From Candidatus Thorarchaeota archaeon (GTDB lineage: Archaea; Asgardarchaeota; Thorarchaeia; Thorarchaeales; Thorarchaeaceae): a DNA stretch of 64,000 nucleotides. Location of the stretch: NCBI GenBank assembly GCA_048884965.1, contig JBHLQH010000012.1:1-64000 (forward strand). The letters run 5' to 3'. The notes under the pieces were generated by a model. It searched no databases. It was not told the origin of the DNA and was given only the letters and a program-made list of their open reading frames with translations. Both the position numbers and the translations under genes were made by a program. Below, piece after piece: positions 3 through 28,501 of this stretch. Position 1 is the stretch's first letter. Every line of letters begins with the position of its first letter.

Positions 3-968
3 CGAGATTGTAAGATTTACGCCAATCTGGCTTATGGTATATCTGATAGTGGCTCAGGTGTCTACTATGATAATATAGTCGCTTGGAACTATCAATATAA
101 TGCATATTGCGATATCTGGGCAATTCCCAGTGCGTTTGACGACGGCATTAGCCGAGGTAATCTCTGGAGTGATTACGATGGCTCAGGTAACTACTATATC
201 GAAGAGTCTTGTGTTGATCACTATCCTCAGCTCATAACCGATGACATCGCTCCAACCATCAATCAACCAGTTGATGCATCATATATCATTGGACGAAACA
301 CTACAACCCTTACTTGGTTACCTGATGACGAGTGGCAGGGATGGTATGATATCTATGTGGACGGGTCATGGAATTGTAACGGATCGTGGTTCACCTCATC
401 GATCGAGTATACTCCTGATTTCTCTGTTTCTGGTATCTACAATGTAACAGTTGTCGCGAGAGACGCCGCTGGCAACTCGGTCTCGGACACGGTCTTCGTA
501 ACTGCAATACTTGATGATACTACACCTCCTACGATAGATCATCCTGCAGATATCCAATATGAAGAAGGGACTGGAGGACACTCTGTCACTTGGGTAGCTA
601 ATGATGTGAATCCATCCAACTGGACACTATTGCATAACGGAACACCTGCCCTAACAGATGAATGGAATGGAGGTTCGATAACCGTCAGTGTTGATGGTCT
701 CCCAGCAGGAGTACACAACATGACCATCATTGTTTCAGATGTCAATGGTAATACTGTGTCAGATACTGTCATGGTTTTTGTCACTGATTCTGGAATCTCT
801 ACACCAACTACGACAACGACTACTATCACAACAACACCGACAACACCACCAATATGGATTCCAGATACAATGACACTGACCATCATGATTTCATTTGGAC
901 TTCTTATCGTCGTCCTAGCAGTGGTACTGAATCGCAGAAGAGGAAGATCCGCTACATTCACACCTTGA
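3..968 (+). CDS. Surface protein, 5'-truncated by window edge: NosD/parallel beta-helix end, Ig-like repeats, Thr-rich linker, C-terminal TM anchor
   Basis: The frame of the 357..968 ORF is open from position 3 (RDCKIYANLAYGI...GNLWSDYDGSGNYYI...VDHYP, a NosD-type C-terminal motif). It continues into Ig-like repeats (YNVTVVARDAAGN, HNMTIIVSDVNGN), a poly-Thr stretch, a hydrophobic helix and basic tail RRRGR. Confidence 0.85.
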   Translation, partial: RDCKIYANLAYGISDSGSGVYYDNIVAWNYQYNAYCDIWAIPSAFDDGISRGNLWSDYDGSGNYYIEESCVDHYPQLITDDIAPTINQPVDASYIIGRNTTTLTWLPDDEWQGWYDIYVDGSWNCNGSWFTSSIEYTPDFSVSGIYNVTVVARDAAGNSVSDTVFVTAILDDTTPPTIDHPADIQYEEGTGGHSVTWVANDVNPSNWTLLHNGTPALTDEWNGGSITVSVDGLPAGVHNMTIIVSDVNGNTVSDTVMVFVTDSGISTPTTTTTTITTTPTTPPIWIPDTMTLTIMISFGLLIVVLAVVLNRRRGRSATFTP

Positions 969-3788: not shown

Positions 3789-6700
3789 TTAGCTTTTTCG
3801 TACCTTCCTCCAGAAGACAAAAATCAGCACAATCGCGATGCCGCCAATCCCACCGATTACAAGCATCATAACCAAGGGATCTATTCCCTGAGTCGAACCC
3901 GGATAGCTGAGCGGGTCGAGGGGATCTGAACCAGCGATGACCTCAATACCGTCAAGGTAGGTATCAGCGTCGCTATCATCATCTAGAGGATCTGTTCCAA
4001 GCTTGATCTCGAAAGCATCGTTGAGATTGTCATTATCGGTATCGATGCAGAGGGGATCCGTGCCATAGTACAGCTCATCCAGATCGTCGAGACCATCATA
4101 GTCTGTGTCCCCAACTGAGATACCTAGCTCATCAACAAGTCCTCTGAGCTCATCAAAGTCCTCGATATGAGTCGCATTGATGGAATTCAACAGAATGATA
4201 TTTCCAGATATGAGAGCCGCTAGTACGTCCATTTCCGCAGAATTGGCATTGACGGATGCTATCACACTTAGTAGTAGCGTTGCATTACCTTCAACGTAGG
4301 TGAACAGGGTCTCTATAGCAGTATGATTGCCATCCAGCCATGCTAGTATCTGAGTGAGGTCTGTAGGTTCGAGTGCATTCACCTGATCGATGACATTTAG
4401 GAGCAGGGTCTCATTACCAGCAGACCAGCTCAAGAGATTCTCGATGAGCGAACTGTTCTCATTCAACGCATTCACTGTGTTCAGGAGGAGGGTCGCGTTT
4501 CCATCGAGTTGCGTGAAGAGAGTTTCTATAGCTGAATGATTGCCATCAAGCCATGCAATGACCTGTATCAAGAGCGTCGCATTATCATCCAGTTGCTGCA
4601 TCACAGCTACGAGAAGACTATAGTTACTATTCGACCAATCGATGAGGTTCTGAATGAGGCTAGCGTTTCCATCAAGGTCTGCGTAGATCGCATCGTACCA
4701 TGCCTGCGGAATCGCAGGGTAGTCCAGCGCATCATTAGGATCTGAACCATAGGCAACCTCGTATGCATCCAAGAAGTTGTCATTGTCACTGTCGATAGCA
4801 AGACTATCTGTGCCTAAAATACTCTCGGAGAAATCGGGTAATGAATCACCATCAGAATCTATATCATAGACAGCCAAGAATCCATCATCAGCTCCAGCCG
4901 CTGTAACACTGTACGCGAGCTGGCAGGGGAAATCAGCCGATTGAGTATATCCAGCAATATACAGCCGTCCAGAGATGTAGTCAATACTCCAGACCTTGTC
5001 GATTCCTGTGCCTCCGATACATGTACTGAAGAGGAGTGATTGACCGTCAGGAGCAAACTTGGTCACAAACACATCGATTGACGATGGATCGCATGGCATA
5101 GTGTGTCCAGCTGTAATTGGAAAATCAGTTGAATCGGTATATCCAGAAATGCACACAGTGCTATCCTCGACAGATATAGCCCAAGGACTAACCTGACCTG
5201 ATCCAGTGAGATATGTGCAGTATACAACTCGAGAAACATTTGTATTGACCTTGGCCAGAAATCCGGAATTCATTCCACTGCCCATATACGCAGGATACAG
5301 AGCATTGACCACCGGGAAGTCTGTGGACGATGTTCCACCCGTCAGGAAGGCGATTCCTCTCTCAACACACATGCCCTGCACATTTTCCAAGTTCGAGCCT
5401 CCGATGTAGCTGCTAAGGACGATACTCTTACCATCTGGCGCGAACTTCGTTAGGAACCCTTCCGAGCCGCCAGCAAAAGTACCATCGAACTCCTGAACCA
5501 ACGGAAAATCAGAAGACCCAGTCATGCCGCTAATATACACTACTCCATTCTCAACTGCAATCTGGATGCCCTGATCCTGTCCATTTCCACCCAAATAGGT
5601 ACTATAGACAAGTGATTGACCGTCAGGAGTGAACTTCGAGAGGAACGCATCTGTGGATGCGCCTCTGGTACTGTCATACGCATTCATAGTAGGGAAGTTG
5701 GTGCTGTAGGTTTCTCCAGTCACGTATATGTATCCATTTTCAACGCGCAGGTCATAGATTCGATCGATATACGAGCTTCCTCCTAGGAGCGTACTGAACT
5801 CAGGTGAAGAGCCGTCAGAAGCCAGCTTCATTAGGAAGGCATCCTGGGTTCCGTTGAACGTAGCATCATATGCAAGATAGGTCGGGAAATTTGGAGAGTT
5901 CGTATAGCCACCGATGAACACACACCCCTCATGTACAGACAACGTTTCGAGCGTGTCATCATTTATACCTCCAATGTAGGTGCTGTAGACTATCGATTGC
6001 CCGTCTGGAGTTAGCTTGATGATGAACGCATCACATGTCAAGCTGTAGGTGGAGTTCCATGCATTCACCATTGGAAAGTTCGCAGAGGTCGTGTAGCCTG
6101 CGAGGTAGATGTAGTCATCAACAACTTGGACAACTTGGACTTGCTCGGATCCGGATCCACCTATATACGAGCTGTAGGCGATATCATAGTCGGAGGGGGA
6201 TGTCGCACCGGGGTATGAATGAGCATCAAGGGGGTCACTATGATGTGCGATCTCGTATCCATCGTTGTAGTTGTCATTATCAGTATCGATGCAGAAGGGA
6301 TTGGTTCCATAACTGATTTCGTCCTCATTAGATAAACCATCCATGTCGCTATCATCTATAAAAACTGCAACCAGGCAATCCGGATTAGAGAAGCCACCAA
6401 AGGTAATGTCATAGGAATTGACCAGAGGCAGGTCAGATGAGGTAGTTTGACCTGTTACATACACGCGACTGTTCTCTACTGCAACTGCTTCTGTCCAATC
6501 AGCACCTGCGCCGCCAAGGTACGTACTGTAGACCAAATCCTGACCGTCCACCGCGAATTTGGCCACAAAGCAGTCACCTGCGCCATTATAGGATGAGTCA
6601 TACGCATTTTTCATAGGGAAGGATGATGTTGTGGAACCTGTTATGTACGCATAGCCGTTTTCTACCGCGAGCCCATGTGGATACTCATTACTCGAACCTC

Positions 6701-8423
6701 CATAATAAGTACTGTAAACAAGCGTTTGACCATCTGAAGAGAGTTTGGTCAAGAAGGCATCTGCCCCTCCACCGATGTTTTGCTGATACGCATAGGCAAC
6801 TGGAAATCCGCTCGAGCCTGTCCATCCAGTGATATAGGCAATCCCATTCTCAGCCGCGATTTCATAGGCAGTATCACTACTGGTGCCTCCGAGAAAGGTG
6901 CTGTACTCCAGAGATTGACCATCTGCTGCGAACTTGGTCACGAAGCAATCGGATGTTCCTCCACTAAAGACGTCATATAATGCGCTTTCTCTAGGGAAAT
7001 TGGAGGACTCTGTGCCTCCAGTAACGAATATAACTCCTTCTTCCAAGTCAACTCCATACCCAATATCTGTGCCTATTCCACCAAGGTAGGTGCAATAGAT
7101 CACGGACGAACCGTTTGGTGCGAAGAGGCTTACGAAGCAGTCGTAGCTAGAACCACCAGCAAAAGTTGCGTTGTAGGCATTATATGTTGGAAGGTCAGGG
7201 GAATTAGTATAGCCCGTTATAGCTACATACCCATTTTCCACAGCAATACCATTTGCCAATTCCGAATTTGACCCACCTAAGAATGTGCTATAGACAAGGG
7301 TTTGTCCATCTGTTGCAAGCTTTGTGACAAAAGCTTCATTGCTGCCAGCAAATGATGAATCATATGCATTGACAAGAGGGAAGGTAGCGGTCATTGTATA
7401 TCCAGTGACATATACATAGCCATCCTCGACTGCGATGCCAAGAGCCTGCTCATCATACGTGCTCCCAAGATAGGTGCTATAGATAAGGGATTGACCATCA
7501 GGTGAGATCTTTGTCACAAAGCAATCATATCCACCACCCCAAGTGGAATCATTTGCATTCTGCATTGGAAATGTAGAAGATTCAGTATAGCCAGTTACGT
7601 AGATGAATCCATTCTCCACAGCGATATCCGTTCCTACATCGTCGCCGATCCCACCCAAATACGTGCTATATACGAGAAGTGGATCTATGAATAGTTCCTT
7701 TGAATTGTCATAGCCTCCAACATCAAACCCAATTGTGTGAGTGTCCACGAGGTAAAATGAGCTTGGCACTTCAGACCTCTCAACTTCTTGGAATGTGGAA
7801 AGTCCTGTATCACTAACGGAGAACTCAGCCAACGACACAGAGAGTGAGTCTGTTTGAACATCAAGGTTGTCTGCATCTGGATAGCTCATTCGAATGATGC
7901 TTGCATCTGCATAAGGCTTGACCACGAACTCGTACTTCAAGTTTCCATCCTGAATCCTGTAGACTAAATCTATTCCGGGATATATCTCGGAGTAGCGTAG
8001 AATCGAGCAGTCCACAATATTTCTCTTCCAACTCGTTTCGTTATTGCCTAGCAGGTAGTTGGTCACAGAGCCAGCGGGTTCCTCACCCTCAGGTATGACC
8101 ATTTGACTGCCAGGAAACTCCAAGTTGACTACTGCACCTTCAGAGAAGTACAGTACCGATGATGCCCCAAAGTAGGCAACTGCATCAGTCCCTCGTCTAC
8201 AGACAAAGTAAAATCCATTGTCAGAGGAAGGTGTTTCAGTAAAGAACATCATTGCAAGATCAATGGCGTCGCTACTGCTGGCATCTATAACTACATCATC
8301 CTGAATTACTGTCCCTCCCTCTAAATCTGAAGCCTCATTATTGAAGGTGAAGCTCAGTCCAATAGAAAGAGAAGGTGCAAGAATTAGAATATAGACTAAT
8401 AAAACCACATACGCGTGCTTCAC
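3789..8423 (-). CDS. Large cell-surface protein: signal peptide, SBBP beta-propeller repeats (two blocks), DxDxDG Ca-binding (TSP3-like) repeats, helical stalk, C-terminal TM anchor
   Basis: Many 'YSTYLGG..D...IAVE.G.iYvTGyT.S..FP' repeats; DSDMDGLS/DTDNDN motifs; C-terminal hydrophobic helix followed by RKVRKS. The ORF is open to 8510, but a GTG at 8423 precedes the signal peptide, so the start is uncertain. Confidence 0.9.
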   Translation of the reverse strand: MKHAYVVLLVYILILAPSLSIGLSFTFNNEASDLEGGTVIQDDVVIDASSSDAIDLAMMFFTETPSSDNGFYFVCRRGTDAVAYFGASSVLYFSEGAVVNLEFPGSQMVIPEGEEPAGSVTNYLLGNNETSWKRNIVDCSILRYSEIYPGIDLVYRIQDGNLKYEFVVKPYADASIIRMSYPDADNLDVQTDSLSVSLAEFSVSDTGLSTFQEVERSEVPSSFYLVDTHTIGFDVGGYDNSKELFIDPLLVYSTYLGGIGDDVGTDIAVENGFIYVTGYTESSTFPMQNANDSTWGGGYDCFVTKISPDGQSLIYSTYLGSTYDEQALGIAVEDGYVYVTGYTMTATFPLVNAYDSSFAGSNEAFVTKLATDGQTLVYSTFLGGSNSELANGIAVENGYVAITGYTNSPDLPTYNAYNATFAGGSSYDCFVSLFAPNGSSVIYCTYLGGIGTDIGYGVDLEEGVIFVTGGTESSNFPRESALYDVFSGGTSDCFVTKFAADGQSLEYSTFLGGTSSDTAYEIAAENGIAYITGWTGSSGFPVAYAYQQNIGGGADAFLTKLSSDGQTLVYSTYYGGSSNEYPHGLAVENGYAYITGSTTSSFPMKNAYDSSYNGAGDCFVAKFAVDGQDLVYSTYLGGAGADWTEAVAVENSRVYVTGQTTSSDLPLVNSYDITFGGFSNPDCLVAVFIDDSDMDGLSNEDEISYGTNPFCIDTDNDNYNDGYEIAHHSDPLDAHSYPGATSPSDYDIAYSSYIGGSGSEQVQVVQVVDDYIYLAGYTTSANFPMVNAWNSTYSLTCDAFIIKLTPDGQSIVYSTYIGGINDDTLETLSVHEGCVFIGGYTNSPNFPTYLAYDATFNGTQDAFLMKLASDGSSPEFSTLLGGSSYIDRIYDLRVENGYIYVTGETYSTNFPTMNAYDSTRGASTDAFLSKFTPDGQSLVYSTYLGGNGQDQGIQIAVENGVVYISGMTGSSDFPLVQEFDGTFAGGSEGFLTKFAPDGKSIVLSSYIGGSNLENVQGMCVERGIAFLTGGTSSTDFPVVNALYPAYMGSGMNSGFLAKVNTNVSRVVYCTYLTGSGQVSPWAISVEDSTVCISGYTDSTDFPITAGHTMPCDPSSIDVFVTKFAPDGQSLLFSTCIGGTGIDKVWSIDYISGRLYIAGYTQSADFPCQLAYSVTAAGADDGFLAVYDIDSDGDSLPDFSESILGTDSLAIDSDNDNFLDAYEVAYGSDPNDALDYPAIPQAWYDAIYADLDGNASLIQNLIDWSNSNYSLLVAVMQQLDDNATLLIQVIAWLDGNHSAIETLFTQLDGNATLLLNTVNALNENSSLIENLLSWSAGNETLLLNVIDQVNALEPTDLTQILAWLDGNHTAIETLFTYVEGNATLLLSVIASVNANSAEMDVLAALISGNIILLNSINATHIEDFDELRGLVDELGISVGDTDYDGLDDLDELYYGTDPLCIDTDNDNLNDAFEIKLGTDPLDDDSDADTYLDGIEVIAGSDPLDPLSYPGSTQGIDPLVMMLVIGGIGGIAIVLIFVFWRKVRKS

Positions 8424-9185
8424 TAGCGTTTCCACCCAAATATGAGAATTATGAGCCGATGAATCTCTGCTTATTATATTACTATGGAAATCAAGTTCAT
8501 ATTGAATCAAAACATAAGCTATCTTTTAGAATAGTTGAATTGCTAACCTATTAGCTACATGGAAATTACCGTTGAATTACTACAAATGGCGATGAGTTTC
8601 ATAGACCAGCTAGCCATTCTTGATGATGAGAAGAGACGTCACTGAGGAGTCTTCCTCAAGCCGCTCAGTTAAGCAATCAATTCGCTGGACATTCATATCC
8701 GGCTCTTCTAGTGAGGAAACTCTCCATGAATCTTTAGGCCAATAATCAATGTATGCCTGAAACGCTTTGTACAGAGGTGTTTGAAATGGAACTTGACCAA
8801 ATATCAGGAGGAGAACGAAGAGTCTTGCATCCACTTATTGCACCCATTTCAAGGGATGACATAGCCTCAATATCATTCCTTTGACTGACGCCTTCCATAC
8901 TCTCGAGGATGTTACTACCTCTTGAAATGTGCTTCGAATTTGACAATCTCCTTGGCAGCTACCTTGAAAAACTCGGTTTGTTATGAATTATTATTTTGAT
9001 GTAATTTTCCTTTGAATAGAAAAAATTGACAACAAATAATGGTTTTTCTAAACTTTTGGCCATTAAAATATTCCTTTGCTTAATGAATACAATAGAATTG
9101 ACCACTTTCTATACCGAAGTCCAATATTCTTTTACAAATCAGACGTAATTTCATCAAAAAAGGACTATTTGTAAACCAAGATTTT

Positions 9186-9319: not shown

Positions 9320-11212
9320 ATGACTCCAGTGCAGACTAGTTATCCTGGTGTATACATTCAGGAAGTTCCAACGGTTGCGAGGACAATTGCAGGTGTTTCA
9401 ACCTCAATTACTGTATTCATCGGACTGGCATCCGCTGAAACGAGTAATCCTCTGAAACCAAAAAGAATTGTATCATATCAGGAATACGAACGGGAATTTG
9501 GTCCGCCACATCCAAACTCGGATTTGGCATCTTCTGTAAGAATGTTCTTTCAGAATGGCGGATCTGTATGTTACATCATCAATATTATTGATGACGCAGT
9601 GTTTGCATCAAACACTGTCAAGAGTGCTGGCGGTTCTGAAATATTGGAATTCAAAACTGTAGCACGAGGAAGAATTGGAAATCTATTTTCAGTTAAACTC
9701 TCAAAGAAGAATGGTACCTATGATGTTGATGTGTTTCTTGACAACCTTAAAGTAGAAACAATAAAAGATTGTGAACTACTAGGATCGGATAATGCAGCAT
9801 CTTTCACAAAGAAATGTGAAAAGTCAGAGTACATTCGTTGCGAAACTAAGGACGCTACAAAGGTCATTGATACTTTTGCTAGTAATCTAGTAAATTCGGA
9901 AAAGCTGTATGCGAAATTGGTCGACGGAAGAGATAACTCTCTACCAACAGTGGATGTTTGCGCGCAGAAGTACAAAGATGCAATCGATAATCTAAGCGAT
10001 ATTGACATTTTCAACTTAATGATTATCACAAGATTGGATGAAGTAGCACCTGAAGATGCAACGGCCCCCGTGATTTCATTCAGACAACCACTGAATAACG
10101 CCATAGTTGACGAGGACCAAACGGGTGATGGAGTATCTGACCTCCCGATCGATATTGATGTTGTATGGACCTGTGATGATCCAAACGCGAAGTTTGAATT
10201 GTATCTAAATGATGCAAATAGGGTGGATCTTATCGCTGGTAGTGTCACGCATACATATCAAGTTGCAGCTGTTGGGGGGTACACAATAAAACTCATTGCA
10301 ATAGACACCAAAGGTAACACAAGTACCGCATCAGTTACATTTACCGTTAGCGATCAGCCCGACTTTGTTGGAGCTGGCTGGGATTCTCTTCCACCTGCGA
10401 TAGTCCCATCAGTTGGAATGACTGATCAAGCATATAGAGATATTCTGGAAAAGGCTAGCCCCTATTGCAAGCAACGAAGAGCATTCTTACTCATAGATCC
10501 ATTATCCACATGGACTACAAAAGACATTACGACAGCTCAATTACTTGAGATACGGGATAAGGTTGAAGATGAGTACTGTGCTTTGTATTTTCCCCACATA
10601 GTAATTAGAGAGTATAATCCAGTAGAGAAAAAGAGCTCTGATAAGAAGATTGGTCCAGCGGCAGCAGTTGCGGGGATCATCTCAGATGTTGATGCAAGTA
10701 GAGGTGTTTGGAAGGCGCCAGCTGGGATAAACACAGATATCACAGGAGTAGAAAGCGTTTCTGTCACCCTTATCGATGAACACAACGGAGTACTAAACTT
10801 GCAGGCTGTGAACTGTCTCCGTACATTTCCTGCGGGTACCGTTGTTTGGGGTGCTCGTACGGTTGCAGGTTTTCAAGAAGGTGAGTGGAAATACATACCA
10901 ATTCGCAGACTTGCACTTTACATTGAAGAATCCCTTTATCGAGGAACACAATGGGTTGTATTTGAGCCAAATGATGAGCCAACTTGGGCGGCAGTAAGGG
11001 CTACGGTCACAGATTTTATGATGGACCTCTTCAGAAAGGGAGCCTTTCAAGGATCAAGCCCCAAAGAAGCTTTCTTTGTAAAATGCGACAAAGATACCAC
11101 GACTGAACGTGACCGTAATTTGGGAGTTCTGAATATCATAATTGGATTTGCACCACTCAAACCTGCAGAGTTTGTAGTTATCCAGATACAGCAAATTTCT
11201 CAATTTTCATAA
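9320..11212 (+). CDS. Contractile tail sheath protein (Afp2/3/4-like) with inserted Ig-like domain
   Basis: N-terminal 'YPGVYIQEV...IAGVSTS'; 'FFQNGG..CYI'; C-terminal 'RGVWKAPAG', 'VWGART', 'WKYIPIRRL', 'VFEPND', 'GFAPLKPAEFVVI'. Confidence 0.97.
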   Translation: MTPVQTSYPGVYIQEVPTVARTIAGVSTSITVFIGLASAETSNPLKPKRIVSYQEYEREFGPPHPNSDLASSVRMFFQNGGSVCYIINIIDDAVFASNTVKSAGGSEILEFKTVARGRIGNLFSVKLSKKNGTYDVDVFLDNLKVETIKDCELLGSDNAASFTKKCEKSEYIRCETKDATKVIDTFASNLVNSEKLYAKLVDGRDNSLPTVDVCAQKYKDAIDNLSDIDIFNLMIITRLDEVAPEDATAPVISFRQPLNNAIVDEDQTGDGVSDLPIDIDVVWTCDDPNAKFELYLNDANRVDLIAGSVTHTYQVAAVGGYTIKLIAIDTKGNTSTASVTFTVSDQPDFVGAGWDSLPPAIVPSVGMTDQAYRDILEKASPYCKQRRAFLLIDPLSTWTTKDITTAQLLEIRDKVEDEYCALYFPHIVIREYNPVEKKSSDKKIGPAAAVAGIISDVDASRGVWKAPAGINTDITGVESVSVTLIDEHNGVLNLQAVNCLRTFPAGTVVWGARTVAGFQEGEWKYIPIRRLALYIEESLYRGTQWVVFEPNDEPTWAAVRATVTDFMMDLFRKGAFQGSSPKEAFFVKCDKDTTTERDRNLGVLNIIIGFAPLKPAEFVVIQIQQISQFS

Positions 11213-11226
11213 TGAGGTGATAAGAG

Positions 11227-11745
11227 ATGTCAACACAACCAGTTTTTCCAGCAAACCCACACAGAATCGATCCATACAAGAACTATCTCTTCCGTGTAAA
11301 GATGGAGGTTGATGGCGAGTGGAAGACAGTCCTTGGAGTGACAAAAGTGAGTGGTCTAAAAAGAGCAACGGAAGTCATATCCCATAGATCTGGCGGAGAG
11401 AATGACAAGGACCATAAAACTCCAGGTCGAACAAAGTATGAACCGATAACCTTGGAGCGCGGGATAACACATGATCCAGATTTTCAAGATTGGGCCATGA
11501 GGATTCATCCACTTGAAGATTCTAGTAGAGATCTTGTTAATTATCGACGAACCTTGCAACTTGAGATACTCAACGAGAGAATGAAACCAGTAATTCGGTA
11601 CAGACTATACAAATGCTGGGTAAGCGAATTCAATCTGCCTGAACTTGACTCCAGCGCGAATGCTCTAGCAATTGAAAGTATCAAGATCGAGCTCGAAGGA
11701 TGGGATAGAGATGCTGATCTTGTAGAGGAGTTTGAGGGAGGTTAG
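11227..11745 (+). CDS. Tail tube protein (T4 gp19-like, Afp1/5)
   Basis: 'DPYKNYLFRV', 'VSGL...EVISHRSGG', 'PGRTKYEPITLERG', 'LDSSANALAIESIKI'; SD GAGGTGA upstream. Confidence 0.95.
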   Translation: MSTQPVFPANPHRIDPYKNYLFRVKMEVDGEWKTVLGVTKVSGLKRATEVISHRSGGENDKDHKTPGRTKYEPITLERGITHDPDFQDWAMRIHPLEDSSRDLVNYRRTLQLEILNERMKPVIRYRLYKCWVSEFNLPELDSSANALAIESIKIELEGWDRDADLVEEFEGG

Positions 11746-11781: not shown

Positions 11782-12621
11782 TTGGAGTATTTGCATGGGA
11801 GAGATTTTGAGTACGGATTCCCAAGAATACCTGCTAGTCTACGGAATCAATACGAAATCAATGGAATCCAATTCAGAAGATATGGAACCTGCATAGAGGA
11901 CTTGAGCATAGACTTTGATATTTTTCCAAGACCTGCTCTGATAACTGAAATCCTTTATCGGTGCATGAATGACAACAGCGGTTCAACTTTGAATGAAGAA
12001 TTCATCTGGAAACTTCCAATTACTACGAGAATTGAAGGCTTATTACACCTAGCATTTCTGAATAGAAATAGCTCTCTCGAGTGTTCTTTTCAATGCTCTA
12101 ATGATGAATGTAATGAGAAACTTGGACTTAATTTGAACTATGAACAGATCCAAAACTACCTGAATCAAATAGCAAATGATGAAACCGTCAATATAGAAAC
12201 TGATGATCGGAGTATAGAATTACGAAAACCCAATGGAATGGATCAATGCAAGTGGCTGCAATCAGAATTCAAGGACATTGATTCTGCCAAGCTCGAGATA
12301 ATCAGAACTTTGGCTAAGGAGAATATCGATGACTTACCAAAATCTATGCTGGCTACAATTTCAAAGCAGTTAGAAAACATTGACCCTTTGATGAACCTGA
12401 ATCTGAAATTGATTTGTCCAGCATGCGGAGAAGAGGGCGTTTACTTCTTGGATCTGGAAACGATTTCACTGGAAATACTGCGAGAAACACAGAGAGAATT
12501 ATTCGAAGGCATTCACATCCTCGCACGCGAATATGGTTGGAATGAAAGTGAGATTCTCTCCTTACCTAGTTGGAGAAGAAAACAGTATATCTCGATGATT
12601 GAGAGGGGGGCTAGCAGATGA
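11782..12621 (+). CDS. T4 gp26/gp51-like baseplate/tail assembly protein with Cys pairs and DUF6760-like C-terminus
   Basis: 'IELRKPNGMDQ', 'DPLMNLNLKLICPACG', C-terminal 'IHILAREYGWNESEILSLPSWRRKQY'; lies directly after the tube gene. Start codon uncertain. Confidence 0.75.
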   Translation: MEYLHGRDFEYGFPRIPASLRNQYEINGIQFRRYGTCIEDLSIDFDIFPRPALITEILYRCMNDNSGSTLNEEFIWKLPITTRIEGLLHLAFLNRNSSLECSFQCSNDECNEKLGLNLNYEQIQNYLNQIANDETVNIETDDRSIELRKPNGMDQCKWLQSEFKDIDSAKLEIIRTLAKENIDDLPKSMLATISKQLENIDPLMNLNLKLICPACGEEGVYFLDLETISLEILRETQRELFEGIHILAREYGWNESEILSLPSWRRKQYISMIERGASR

Positions 12622-13550
12622 GTGATTATCTCTCCAAAGTGATTGAGAGAACTGGGATTGTAGCAAAACAAGAGAAGTTAGAAGATGAAGTGGTAAAAAC
12701 AAGAGAAGTAGATATACAAGAAGAAAGTGATTTCAAAGGAGAAGAACCAGAGATCCCCGTTGATTTAGATTCTGAAGATATCGCAATATCAGATGTATTG
12801 ATAGACTACAAAGAAGAAGAACACAAGCCTGAAGAAATAGAAGACACTTTCAAAGAAGAGTCGGAATTCATCGATTCAATTGAAACGAAGGGAGAGATAG
12901 AAAGTGAAACTGAGCATACTGAACATATTATTGAATCCCCTGATAAAACAGAGAATCCTAAAAAGCTTGAAGTTACTGATTTGAACCAAATAGATGCTAT
13001 AGAAATTCTTGATGACCAGATAGATTCGGAAATGGAATCAGATAGTGAAATCCGAGAATCACCTCATACTATCAGCAAAGTCACACGGCCAATTATGCCT
13101 TCTACACCAAAGGAGATTCAACCTCAATATACAGTTGACGAATCGGATCAACCTGCTCCACAAATGAAAGACCAAGAAAACGATGAATTACATAGTATCA
13201 CCCACAAAGAGATGACAATAAATCAAGTCTTGAGATGGATTGAAACTGATGAAGAAATTTCAGATATTCATGCACACTCAATCAAGCAAATGGAGGAAAA
13301 AAGAGGACCACCTGAAACATTGTTGCAACCAGAAATTCGTGTAGATAAGAGTGAAGCAAAACTGAGAACTGCAGATGAGCCTACTTTCGAGAAAGATGAT
13401 TCCCTTAGGATTTCTATCGGTTCTATCAATCTGACTATTGAAGAACCTCGTCCAGAAGATCAATTTACGAAAATATCTGATGTTCCTATTCGAAAGAAAC
13501 GTGAAACTAGACCATTATCACGACTCAGTAGATTCTATCTGAGGAGGTAA
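12618..13550 (+). CDS. Acidic, low-complexity CIS-associated protein (possible ruler/tape-measure analogue)
   Basis: Very Glu/Asp-rich 310 aa protein. N-terminal 'MSDYLSKVIER' and C-terminal 'LRISIGSINLTI...LSRFYLRR' resemble unstructured proteins encoded upstream of Pvc16 in eCIS loci. ATGA overlap with the previous gene. Confidence 0.6.
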   Translation: MSDYLSKVIERTGIVAKQEKLEDEVVKTREVDIQEESDFKGEEPEIPVDLDSEDIAISDVLIDYKEEEHKPEEIEDTFKEESEFIDSIETKGEIESETEHTEHIIESPDKTENPKKLEVTDLNQIDAIEILDDQIDSEMESDSEIRESPHTISKVTRPIMPSTPKEIQPQYTVDESDQPAPQMKDQENDELHSITHKEMTINQVLRWIETDEEISDIHAHSIKQMEEKRGPPETLLQPEIRVDKSEAKLRTADEPTFEKDDSLRISIGSINLTIEEPRPEDQFTKISDVPIRKKRETRPLSRLSRFYLRR

Positions 13551-26101: not shown

Positions 26102-28501
26102 TTGAAAAGGGTGTCACTCTACGATAGACTTCCACGAATATATCAAGATAAAGATGCGGAGCAATTGCCGCCATATCAACTGAAGAGGTACTTGGAAATC
26201 TTTGAAACGATCTTAGGAAGGATACATGAGAATATCGAAGATTTGTATCATGATATATTCATAGAAACGTGCGATGAGTGGGTTATCCCATATATCGGAG
26301 ATCTATTAGGAGTTACACACCTCAAGACAGATTCATGGCACAACAGAGCAGATGTAGCAGATACAATCGCATTGAGAAGGAGAAAGGGAACACTAAGTGC
26401 AATTGAATTACTTACTTACGATTTGACTGGATGGGGCGTACATTGTTCGGAGCTACGTGATAGATTACTCTTCAATCAGAATATCAACTTATATAACGAT
26501 TTTAAGAAAATGTACAAACTCTCAATACTATCAGGTAATGAGTATGGCGAACCTGAAAGAAATAGGACTGCAGATATTCGCAAACGAGGTGTACTATCAC
26601 TGCAAAGAACTCCTTTTGATTCGTTACACTACACTGCTGATGTTAAGCCGCTCGTTATTGATAATCTTAGATATAACATCCCCAATTTGGCGATATACCT
26701 CTGGAGATTAGAACCATATCAAATTCCACTCTCAAAGGCAGTTCGAGCAGAGGGGTATCCAAAAGCTCAAGCACCTGTAGATGGTATTGATGATGTAGCT
26801 GAGCATATCTCCGCATTCTATGTACAACCACTTGGTAGAAGTAAAGTTCTCTTCAACAAATGCTCAGACATTATCTGCGTTACATGTGGATTTGAAAATT
26901 CGATAGATGATGATATCTGTCAGAACTGTGGAGCTCCAATGCCAAGGAAGAATTTCAAAGCTGATTACGTTAGAGTTTCTGATTTAGATGAAGCACCAGG
27001 GCCAATTCTGAGAACGCGCTTGAATGAAATATCCTCGGTTGGACGACCAGTGAAATATGTAACATTATCCAACTTTGAAGATTACGACCAATTAGCCGTA
27101 TTTGCACACACCAAGATACCTAATGTTGGACTCAGAATATTCCTTGTAGGTGGTGATTTCAAGGAGGAGGAATGGCCAAGCAGTATACCAGAAAAGAAAT
27201 GGAGGATTAGAGGTTCAAAATTAGAAGCCTGGGAACATTCTCTCAGCTCACCACTTCGCAACAGAGAAATTGCCATTGATCCTCAACTAGGTAGAATACT
27301 AATTGGCCTTGATGATCGCTTAGATACCGAAGACGATATCCTATATCTTACATATACATATGGCTCAATAAAAGACGTAGGAGCGAATCCTCGCGAAAGA
27401 AATGTACCTAATGAATGGTCTGATGCTAAGAAGATTGAAGTTGAGGGAGGTGGGACTAGTCTCAATGATAAACTAAGGAATGGACTTAAAGACGAAAAGA
27501 AGGTTATCATTGAGATTCGAGATAGTTTAATTTATGATGTACAAAGCCATATCGAATCTGATGGGCTAATATACATCAGAACAAGAGATGGATGTCGTCC
27601 TATTATCAGGCTAACTCGCCCATTGCAAATCTATCCAGCAAAACGATTCAGTGAATTTGGCTCAGCGGATGAGTATCACGAGTATATCTATAGTCTAAAG
27701 GTAACATTTGAAGGACTATTCATTACTGGTTCTGATGAACGTGATTATCCTCTTTTTGATAGAATTGCTATTAACGAACTTACTTTCAATCAATGTACTC
27801 TTGATCCAACTAGATATCTGGGAGATGCCATAGAAGAACGCAAACCGCGGATAGCTATGCATCTGAGAAGACACTATGGCTTTCCTGAAGGCTCGGATGA
27901 AATCCTAAATTTCCCAGAAATTCCCAGAATAAGTTTCTACAATTCAATAACCGGATCACTATTCGTGGATCGTTTCTACCAACTCGCATTCGTGAATTCA
28001 ATTATTGATGCATCCACCTCTGTGAAAGAGCAAGAGTCAGCCCGATTTGCGATACGTGATGATGGTGGTGCCGATTGGGGACCTCCTACCAAAATGAAAG
28101 GTACGACAGTATTTGGCAAGTCTAAGGTAGAAAGGATTTCAGGTAGTAGCAACATCTTTGGTCACAGATTGCAGGTTCAAAGAACTCTTGAGGGTTGTAT
28201 GAAGCAGAGCTATATTGTGGCAAAGAGAGGGGAGATACCACAAATCGAAGGGTGCATAGTCGTAGGTCCTGGGGCAAAGGATAGACCTACACTTAGTTTT
28301 GAGTCTGAAGTATTCGGAGACCCCGGATTTGCTCAATTGACACATTCTACGGATTATAGAATCCGTGAAGGAGGTTTGAACTTTAATGCGATGGGGGCGA
28401 CTGGCTTCTTACGTGAATCGGACAAATGGAGGAATTTGCAGATCAGACTGAGGGAGTTTATGCCTGTCGGTATCAGATCTGTTTTCATGACGGTGACATA
28501 G
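26102..28501 (+). CDS. P2 gpI/gp7-like baseplate-tail protein with zinc-ribbon insertion
   Basis: 'LYDRLPRIY..KD', 'FIETCDEWVIPYIGDLLG', 'RADVADTIALRRRKGT', 'AIDPQLGRI', C-terminal 'RLREFMPVG'; internal CxxC..CxxC. Confidence 0.85.
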   Translation: MKRVSLYDRLPRIYQDKDAEQLPPYQLKRYLEIFETILGRIHENIEDLYHDIFIETCDEWVIPYIGDLLGVTHLKTDSWHNRADVADTIALRRRKGTLSAIELLTYDLTGWGVHCSELRDRLLFNQNINLYNDFKKMYKLSILSGNEYGEPERNRTADIRKRGVLSLQRTPFDSLHYTADVKPLVIDNLRYNIPNLAIYLWRLEPYQIPLSKAVRAEGYPKAQAPVDGIDDVAEHISAFYVQPLGRSKVLFNKCSDIICVTCGFENSIDDDICQNCGAPMPRKNFKADYVRVSDLDEAPGPILRTRLNEISSVGRPVKYVTLSNFEDYDQLAVFAHTKIPNVGLRIFLVGGDFKEEEWPSSIPEKKWRIRGSKLEAWEHSLSSPLRNREIAIDPQLGRILIGLDDRLDTEDDILYLTYTYGSIKDVGANPRERNVPNEWSDAKKIEVEGGGTSLNDKLRNGLKDEKKVIIEIRDSLIYDVQSHIESDGLIYIRTRDGCRPIIRLTRPLQIYPAKRFSEFGSADEYHEYIYSLKVTFEGLFITGSDERDYPLFDRIAINELTFNQCTLDPTRYLGDAIEERKPRIAMHLRRHYGFPEGSDEILNFPEIPRISFYNSITGSLFVDRFYQLAFVNSIIDASTSVKEQESARFAIRDDGGADWGPPTKMKGTTVFGKSKVERISGSSNIFGHRLQVQRTLEGCMKQSYIVAKRGEIPQIEGCIVVGPGAKDRPTLSFESEVFGDPGFAQLTHSTDYRIREGGLNFNAMGATGFLRESDKWRNLQIRLREFMPVGIRSVFMTVT

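Follow-up and report, generated by a model that had tools for sequence, protein, structure and literature searches.

The injection locus and its sheath gene

The window analysed in this study is a 64,000-nucleotide (nt) stretch of DNA from a Candidatus Thorarchaeota archaeon (assembly GCA_048884965.1, contig JBHLQH010000012.1, positions 1 to 64,000 of the forward strand), and a xylulokinase encoded in it has its nearest named relatives, at 79% identity, in Candidatus Thorarchaeota. The window carries the operon of a contractile injection system whose sheath protein, P0001, contains an immunoglobulin (Ig)-like domain in a loop of its conserved Rossmann-like domain, between the strand DIFNLMIIT and the following helix (ASPYC...). 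The sheath gene lies at 9320 to 11212, encodes 630 amino acids (aa) and was identified with Pfam, Foldseek, phmmer and tblastn; like all of the features located in this section, it is on the forward strand. A Pfam scan of P0001 gives PF17482 (Phage_sheath_1C) at 43.6 bits over residues 522-625 (cut-off 26.9) and PF04984 (Phage_sheath_1, subtilisin-like/Rossmann-like) at 30.9 bits, just below the cut-off of 31.4, a gathering score that the homologues P0002 and P0003 pass. The best solved match for the model of the full-length protein is the Halogeometricum borinquense sheath 9ezm_A (Foldseek E 1.4e-25; P0001 also matches 9ezm by phmmer at 1.6e-65), and a second solved sheath, 8bky_A, is matched at a Foldseek E of 4.5e-18. 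No second sheath gene was found in the 4.09-Mb genome by tblastn, the single match being P0001 itself.

The gp19-type tube gene (11227 to 11745; PF06841, E 3.2e-36) starts 15 nt downstream of the sheath gene, and the rest of the injection-system operon, recognised by its Pfam families, extends from 11782 to 33250. After the tube it encodes T4_baseplate/DUF6760, a Pvc16_N cap, an AAA ATPase, GPD and Phage_base_V (OB-fold spike parts), together with PAAR-like DUF4280, GPW_gp25, gpI-like and DUF6519/beta-helix proteins; two large open reading frames (ORFs; 20925 and 23393) have no Pfam match, and there is no Rfam match in the window. The core gene set is present, and the locus is a complete Afp/PVC-like contractile injection locus of the extracellular contractile injection system (eCIS) type. 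The haloarchaeal relatives work as type VI secretion systems from inside the cell (PMC11566945).

The sheath protein begins with a conserved N-terminal core containing the motif YPGVYI (residues 1-93; 9320 to 9598), which aligns over its full length with all homologues. This is followed by a first outer module, or 'domain 3' (residues 94-228; 9599 to 10003), a beta-sandwich plus helices that occupies the site where the family usually varies and to which the full-length model assigns predicted local distance difference test (pLDDT) values of 85-94. The equivalent region of P0003 gives a weak match to PF17481, and the module is missing from archaeal relatives of 397-424 aa. The strand motif DIFNLMIIT (residues 229-237; 10004 to 10030), with its strand modelled at 233-236 and with F231 and N232 invariant in our alignment A6, forms the upstream anchor of the insertion loop. 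An N-terminal linker of the insert (residues 238-245; 10031 to 10054), having a low pLDDT in the full-length model and columns (240-245) that are filled in <20% of the Ig-domain rows, leads into the Ig-like beta-sandwich core (residues 246-346; 10055 to 10357), which was assigned with AlphaFold2, Foldseek and phmmer and in which the domain alignment picks out an acidic loop, VDEDQTGDGVS (residues 263-273; 10106 to 10138). The chain comes back through a Pro/Gly-rich return linker (residues 347-366; 10358 to 10417) with a pLDDT of 55-60, in which most columns (348-362) are occupied in few or none of the other aligned Ig domains. The remainder is the conserved C-terminal core with ASPYCKQRRAFLLID (residues 367-630; 10418 to 11209), in which many columns are invariant and which includes the downstream motif ILEKASPYCKQRRAFLLID (residues 375-393; 10442 to 10498).

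Insertion site of the Ig-like domain

An earlier note on this DNA had proposed that an Ig-like domain of about 130 aa, at 10037 to 10425, separates two sheath motifs that are normally close together. Alignment against the closest short homologues (P0003, P0005 and P0006) delimits the extra segment as residues ~240-365, nt 10037-10414, or ~126 aa, nearly the same interval, and the peptides quoted in the note are present in the protein. In these three homologues only 4-15 residues lie between the DIFNLxxIT strand and the 'GMxDxxY...ASxYC' helix. We also measured the spacing between D[LIVM]F[NS]x and [YFW]Cxx[RK][RK] in the 189 sheath sequences, drawn from a protein database, GTDB genomes and JGI metagenomes, that contain both motifs. 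This spacing is 17-36 residues, with a mode of 23, outside two proteins, so that the motifs are indeed normally close: the exceptions are P0001 at 148 (present in the set twice, as P0001 and L001) and its metagenomic orthologue P0002 at 143.

Some members of the family are 500-900 aa long, and in these the extra sequence is upstream of the strand motif while the downstream loop stays short. In a MAFFT multiple alignment the DIFNL strand was paired wrongly, with unrelated columns of relatives of 800 aa, which masked the difference in loop length. That the insert occupies the family's usual variable site was considered and rejected, both on the motif spacing and on the upstream position of the extra sequence in the larger relatives. 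The canonical site is filled by residues 94-228, and the Ig domain occupies a second insertion site downstream of this canonical outer region. The phmmer alignments to solved sheaths do not extend across the insertion loop.

The genome is a metagenome-assembled draft of 99 contigs with 7% contamination, and an assembly or gene-calling artefact, such as a chimeric contig or a fused ORF, could in principle produce an arrangement of this kind. This explanation is scarcely credible here, as the frame is unbroken and the segment is flanked on each side by conserved sheath sequence, the same architecture occurs in an independent sample, and an identical protein is on record on a 92-kb contig.

Fold and family of the insert

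An AlphaFold2 model of residues 238-365, built with an alignment of 70 Ig domains, has a mean pLDDT of 86.9 and eight strands running from residues 252 to 344, with a pLDDT of 95-98 across most of the core; residues 347-365 make up a tail with little order. In Foldseek the model is matched to Big, Fn3-like and PKD sandwiches at target-normalised template modelling (TM) scores of 0.74-0.79 and root-mean-square deviations of 2.4-3.3 A. The inserted Ig-like domain proposed in the note is thus borne out, and neither finding that the note named as refuting it was made: the segment models as a beta-sandwich, and the close homologues lack it.

Against Pfam the insert alone gives sub-threshold matches only (PKD_4 at 16.6 bits with a cut-off of 27, He_PIG at 14.3 bits, and PKD), and Big_7 is not listed. 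Residues 255-329 of P0002 match Big_7 (PF17957) at 27.8 bits, above the cut-off of 24.1, and Big_13 (PF19077) at 23.2 bits. A phmmer search of 1.84 billion representative proteins with the insert gave 370 matches at E <= 1e-3, of which 44 were at <= 1e-10. All 370 align to the insert in several stretches (2 to 44) and are mostly large proteins; the matches that were scanned with Pfam have 3-8 Big_7, Big_13 or PKD repeats each, and those that are named are 'Ig-like domain-containing proteins' of Ca. Freyarchaeum, Aenigmatarchaeota and Thermoplasmatota. The insert is a Big_7/Big_13-like Ig domain and is not a formal Pfam member.

The tandem Big_7/Big_13 repeats of large surface proteins in archaea and bacteria (e.g. 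WXG41878.1 of Ca. Freyarchaeum deiterrae, P0122 and P0123) have a signature in common with the insert: they open with a DTTPP-like stretch, have a Trp in the core and an 'A.D.AGN' turn, and close with 'F.V'. HMMER E-values of the insert against whole repeat proteins go down to 5e-30. The per-domain identity to these surface repeats is, however, only ~30%, and in P0001 there is a single copy, outside any stalk, with an acidic loop. Approximately 95% of the other aligned Ig domains lack this loop, as does P0002: the loop's columns (263-273) are filled in <=6% of the 70 other Ig domains, except for V263 (16%). The DxDxTG pattern of the loop may mark a putative Ca2+ site, a guess from the motif. 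The loop also resembles the DxDxDG-type repeats of a neighbouring surface protein at 3789 to 8510.

The termini of an Ig domain are at opposite poles, which would account for the long Pro/Gly-rich return linker, a feature that is also present in P0002.

Origin and age of the insert

The note had suggested that a host-type adhesion domain, matching the Ig-like modules of the host's own surface proteins, was grafted onto the sheath. At the level of the family the likeness is real: at least 34 other ORFs of the host genome, with 84 domains, match the same Ig profile, and the motif YNVTVVARDAAGN, quoted in the note, is present at about nt 440-500 of the window. It lies in the ORF at 3 to 965 (forward strand, 5'-open at the contig start), which has two Ig-like domains with sub-threshold Big_13 and Big_3_3 matches. 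The host archaeon has a large repertoire of Ig-repeat surface proteins. No close host domain was found, however. Against the host's Ig domains the insert scores at most 11 bits per domain in phmmer, while the best domains of the global library reach 20-30 bits; tblastn of the insert against the host genome gives E >= 0.16, and identity to the ORF at 3 to 965 is 22-25% (E ~0.02). There is no compositional anomaly in the insert, its GC content and third-position GC content (GC3) matching the rest of the gene, and a search for flanking direct or inverted repeats as an insertion scar returned only 10-nt chance matches.

The orthologue P0002 comes from an unrelated sample (SRR31155649). Its insert starts and ends at the same positions as that of P0001, its reading frame is intact, and on its contig the sheath is followed by the tube (172 aa), as in the window. 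The two proteins are 68% identical in the N-terminal core and 65% in the C-terminal core; the first outer module and the Ig domain are each at 31%, and the return linker is at 15%. Both outer modules have diverged to the same extent, in keeping with descent of the two from a common ancestor. To judge by these sequence comparisons, the insert is an old acquisition that has travelled with the sheath lineage and not a recent host graft. A recent graft from one of the host's surface-protein genes, taken as a sign of domestication, has on its side the many host domains of the same broad family, one of them in the window, but it is very improbable given the distance to every host domain, the ordinary GC, the presence of the insert in an orthologue from another sample, and the patchy locus, with a different, minimal sheath in a genome of the same genus.

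Separate trees of insert and sheath, which the note had called for, were built, and both are too poorly resolved to speak to a shared origin of the inserts. A quick tree built from 71 Ig domains does not group the two sheath inserts together, although nothing in this tree is resolved and a single origin is still compatible with it. The sheath-core tree recovers an archaeal clade of seven with 98% support, inside which P0001 and P0002 are not resolved.

The comparison with P0002 also bears on whether the domain could be a tolerated passenger, a promiscuous Ig module kept in a permissive loop with no specific function. Structural proteins of phages exchange Ig-like modules widely (Fraser et al. 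2006, cited in PMC9230969), and the small number of carriers (two) and the low sequence conservation between them would suit such a module. We nonetheless find this doubtful, since the fold signature and the exact boundaries have been kept while the cores diverged to 65-68% identity, the frame is intact in both carriers, and ~380 nt without a use would be expensive in the structural protein that is made in the greatest amount.

Distribution among related genomes

No Ig profile match was found among ~160 other sheath ORFs, and in 46 sheaths of varied length a Pfam Ig family was present in one, P0002. In 300 other genomes of the phylum there is no sheath match that covers the insert, and a sheath match of any kind (E <= 1e-10) occurs in seven. 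The Rhodobacterales sheaths of the set include none with a long loop at the insertion site. A GTDB locus search with a single-protein query returned nothing; alignment-based searches gave matches.

Minimal sheaths of 397 and 417 aa are encoded, respectively, by G003, which is a genome from the same genus, and by G020, from a sister genus; their core identity to P0001, measured over the C-terminal core, is 57-59%. These sheaths, on G003:C104 (L003/L009) and G020:C31 (L002/L008), lack both outer modules, and a sheath is missing altogether from most of the family's genomes. Injection loci therefore differ between closely related Thorarchaeia and have a patchy distribution, and the locus probably moves horizontally. 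A patchy and probably mobile locus argues against the insert as a mark of domestication. Domestication, which the note had read from the insert, does not follow in any case, as Ig-like add-ons are common on true phage sheaths (PMC9230969).

The closest named relative of the sheath, at 66% core identity, is P0004 (L007:2986-4986, in CP070820.1, a Ca. Bathyarchaeum sp. chromosome). It is annotated as a single 662-aa protein in which a minimal sheath (PF04984 and PF17482) is joined to an AAA ATPase domain, and it could be either a real sheath-ATPase fusion or a collapsed locus.

Display of the domain and its possible role

Extra sheath domains commonly have an Ig-like fold and a position away from the tube, and the functions suggested for them are adhesion or stabilisation (PMC9230969); variability within the sheath is highest in domain 3, and domains 1-2 face inwards (PMC11566945). 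Published structures agree in turning the inner domains towards the tube and in placing the variable domain outside (PMC11566945, PMC9230969). In our full-length model the conserved middle domain has the alternating strand-helix pattern of a parallel sheet, and both add-on modules follow C-terminal strand ends (after 83-88 and after 233-236), so that they leave the same sheet edge. Since there is also no space between sheath and tube for six 14-kDa domains per ring, the Ig domain would lie outside the wall, and its outward display is very likely. In that position it would not be expected to hinder contraction. Flexible linkers of ~8 and ~20 residues tether the Ig domain of ~100 residues. With P0001 as the sole sheath protein, every subunit would carry the domain, six per ring, and with hexameric layers, of which there are 23 in the Anabaena system (PMC8894136), the copy number would be of the order of a hundred per particle.

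The likeliest role for such an array is accessory decoration: by binding glycans or surface layers weakly and multivalently, the domains would keep the particle at its target or in a matrix. A role in adhesion or decoration is favoured because of the analogy with Hoc, with the C-terminal Ig domain of lambda gpV and with other phage Ig add-ons, and the domain would probably be dispensable for assembly and firing. We regard it as reasonably probable that the insert as a whole is an old Ig-like domain in the second sheath loop, displayed outwards, with a weak, multivalent role in adhesion or decoration and not needed for firing.

Several points weigh against this interpretation. Outward display rests on topology and on the lack of space, not on an oligomer model, and the full-length model packs the insert on the sheath body with low confidence (pLDDT of just 50-62). 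The insert of P0001 reaches no Pfam Ig gathering score, and the analysis identified in it neither a ligand nor a binding pocket nor a patch of conserved surface. The two known carriers, P0001 and P0002, are too few to gauge selection on the insert. Adhesion to outside surfaces would also fail if the machine stays cytoplasmic, as the haloarchaeal one does (PMC11566945).

Alternatively, the Ig domain may bind a neighbouring subunit, at its outer module or its core, and, like cement, stabilise the extended, metastable sheath. For phage 812, contacts between outer domains have been proposed to stabilise the sheath discs, an idea raised more generally for extra domains of sheaths (PMC9230969), and an extra loop of SalCis2 stabilises the extended state (PMC13266070). 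The departure of both outer modules from the same sheet edge would be in keeping with a structural brace of this kind. The two flexible, poorly conserved linkers and the low placement confidence in the full-length model suggest instead a loose tether, and the closest relatives presumably assemble without any outer module, making a bracing function rather unlikely.

The note had also raised bundling and tethering, in which the domains would join particles side by side or tie the sheath to the envelope or cytoskeleton. Arrays and bundles of injection systems exist in other lineages, going by the work cited in PMC13266070, and the acidic loop could bridge domains via Ca2+, again a guess based on its motif. 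Bundling and tethering have no positive evidence in their favour, and the analysis identified no partner. A crude hydropathy scan, which decides nothing on anchoring, showed no membrane-spanning segment in the structural genes. When two copies of the Ig core were modelled as a complex the score was 0.13 (mark 0.42), a result that counts neither for nor against self-association. On balance we consider bundling or tethering unlikely. We are equally hesitant about a stronger form of the adhesion role, in which the sheath Ig array would be a targeting or anchoring surface, for example through Ca2+-dependent side-on binding via the lineage-specific acidic loop to the glycosylated surface layer of a partner cell or to neighbouring particles. 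If so, the sheath itself, beyond the tail fibres, would decide where the machine acts.

Relationship to known sheath and phage Ig domains

Outer sheath domains are known from T4 gp18 (domains I/II), from the 'type 2/3' sheaths of Evseev et al. 2022 (PMC9230969), and from Pvc3/4, Afp3/4 and H. borinquense Cis2 (9ezm), where they form domain 3. Like the Ig domain of P0001 these are add-on modules, often Ig-like, located away from the tube; they vary among close relatives and are thought to be unnecessary for contraction. They are, however, nested between the N-terminal core and the DLFNL-type strand, whereas the Ig domain described here is one strand-helix unit further on, in a loop of near-constant length, and unlike them it belongs to a surface-protein repeat family that is recognisable by sequence. 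The Ig decorations of tailed phages (T4 Hoc, the C-terminal Big_2 of lambda gpV, and T5 pb6) are, in the account of Fraser et al. (2006) as cited in PMC9230969, likewise single and loosely tethered domains present in many copies on helical or icosahedral assemblies, for which weak binding to surface carbohydrates has been proposed. In that account they are terminal fusions or separate proteins on capsids or non-contractile tubes, while the domain in P0001 is internal and is part of a contractile sheath in an archaeal non-viral machine.

That sheaths can have extra Ig-like outer domains, and that these may serve in adhesion or stabilisation, is already published (PMC9230969); the principle of outer sheath add-ons is thus known, and the role suggested for this one is drawn by analogy. 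What is new is the insertion site, in a loop of otherwise fixed length, the membership in a surface-repeat family recognisable by sequence, and the Thorarchaeia-type Asgard host. We found no papers on the sheaths of Asgard injection systems beyond a listing in PMC9230969. P0001 shows that a second loop, although its length is otherwise fixed, can accommodate an entire folded domain in every subunit, and such a tolerant loop would be useful for displaying binders on engineered injection particles. The insert is also among the few worked-out features of Asgard injection systems, and cell-to-cell interactions of Asgard archaea bear on ideas about the origin of eukaryotes.

Additional observations

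A further lead on sheath add-ons came from the ESM Atlas, in which half of the members of a cluster of 56 Chloroflexota sheaths of ~704 aa are annotated with CarboxypepD_reg (PF13620), which would give a further example of a sheath beta-sandwich recognisable with Pfam. Within the operon, the ORF at 12618 to 13550, between the T4_baseplate/DUF6760 and cap genes, encodes a very acidic, low-complexity protein of 310 aa with no Pfam match. The gpI-like baseplate protein (26102 to 28501) has a weak match to Zn_Ribbon_1 (E 0.003) at about residues 259-279, and this zinc ribbon may be a second small module inserted in a structural protein of the same machine.

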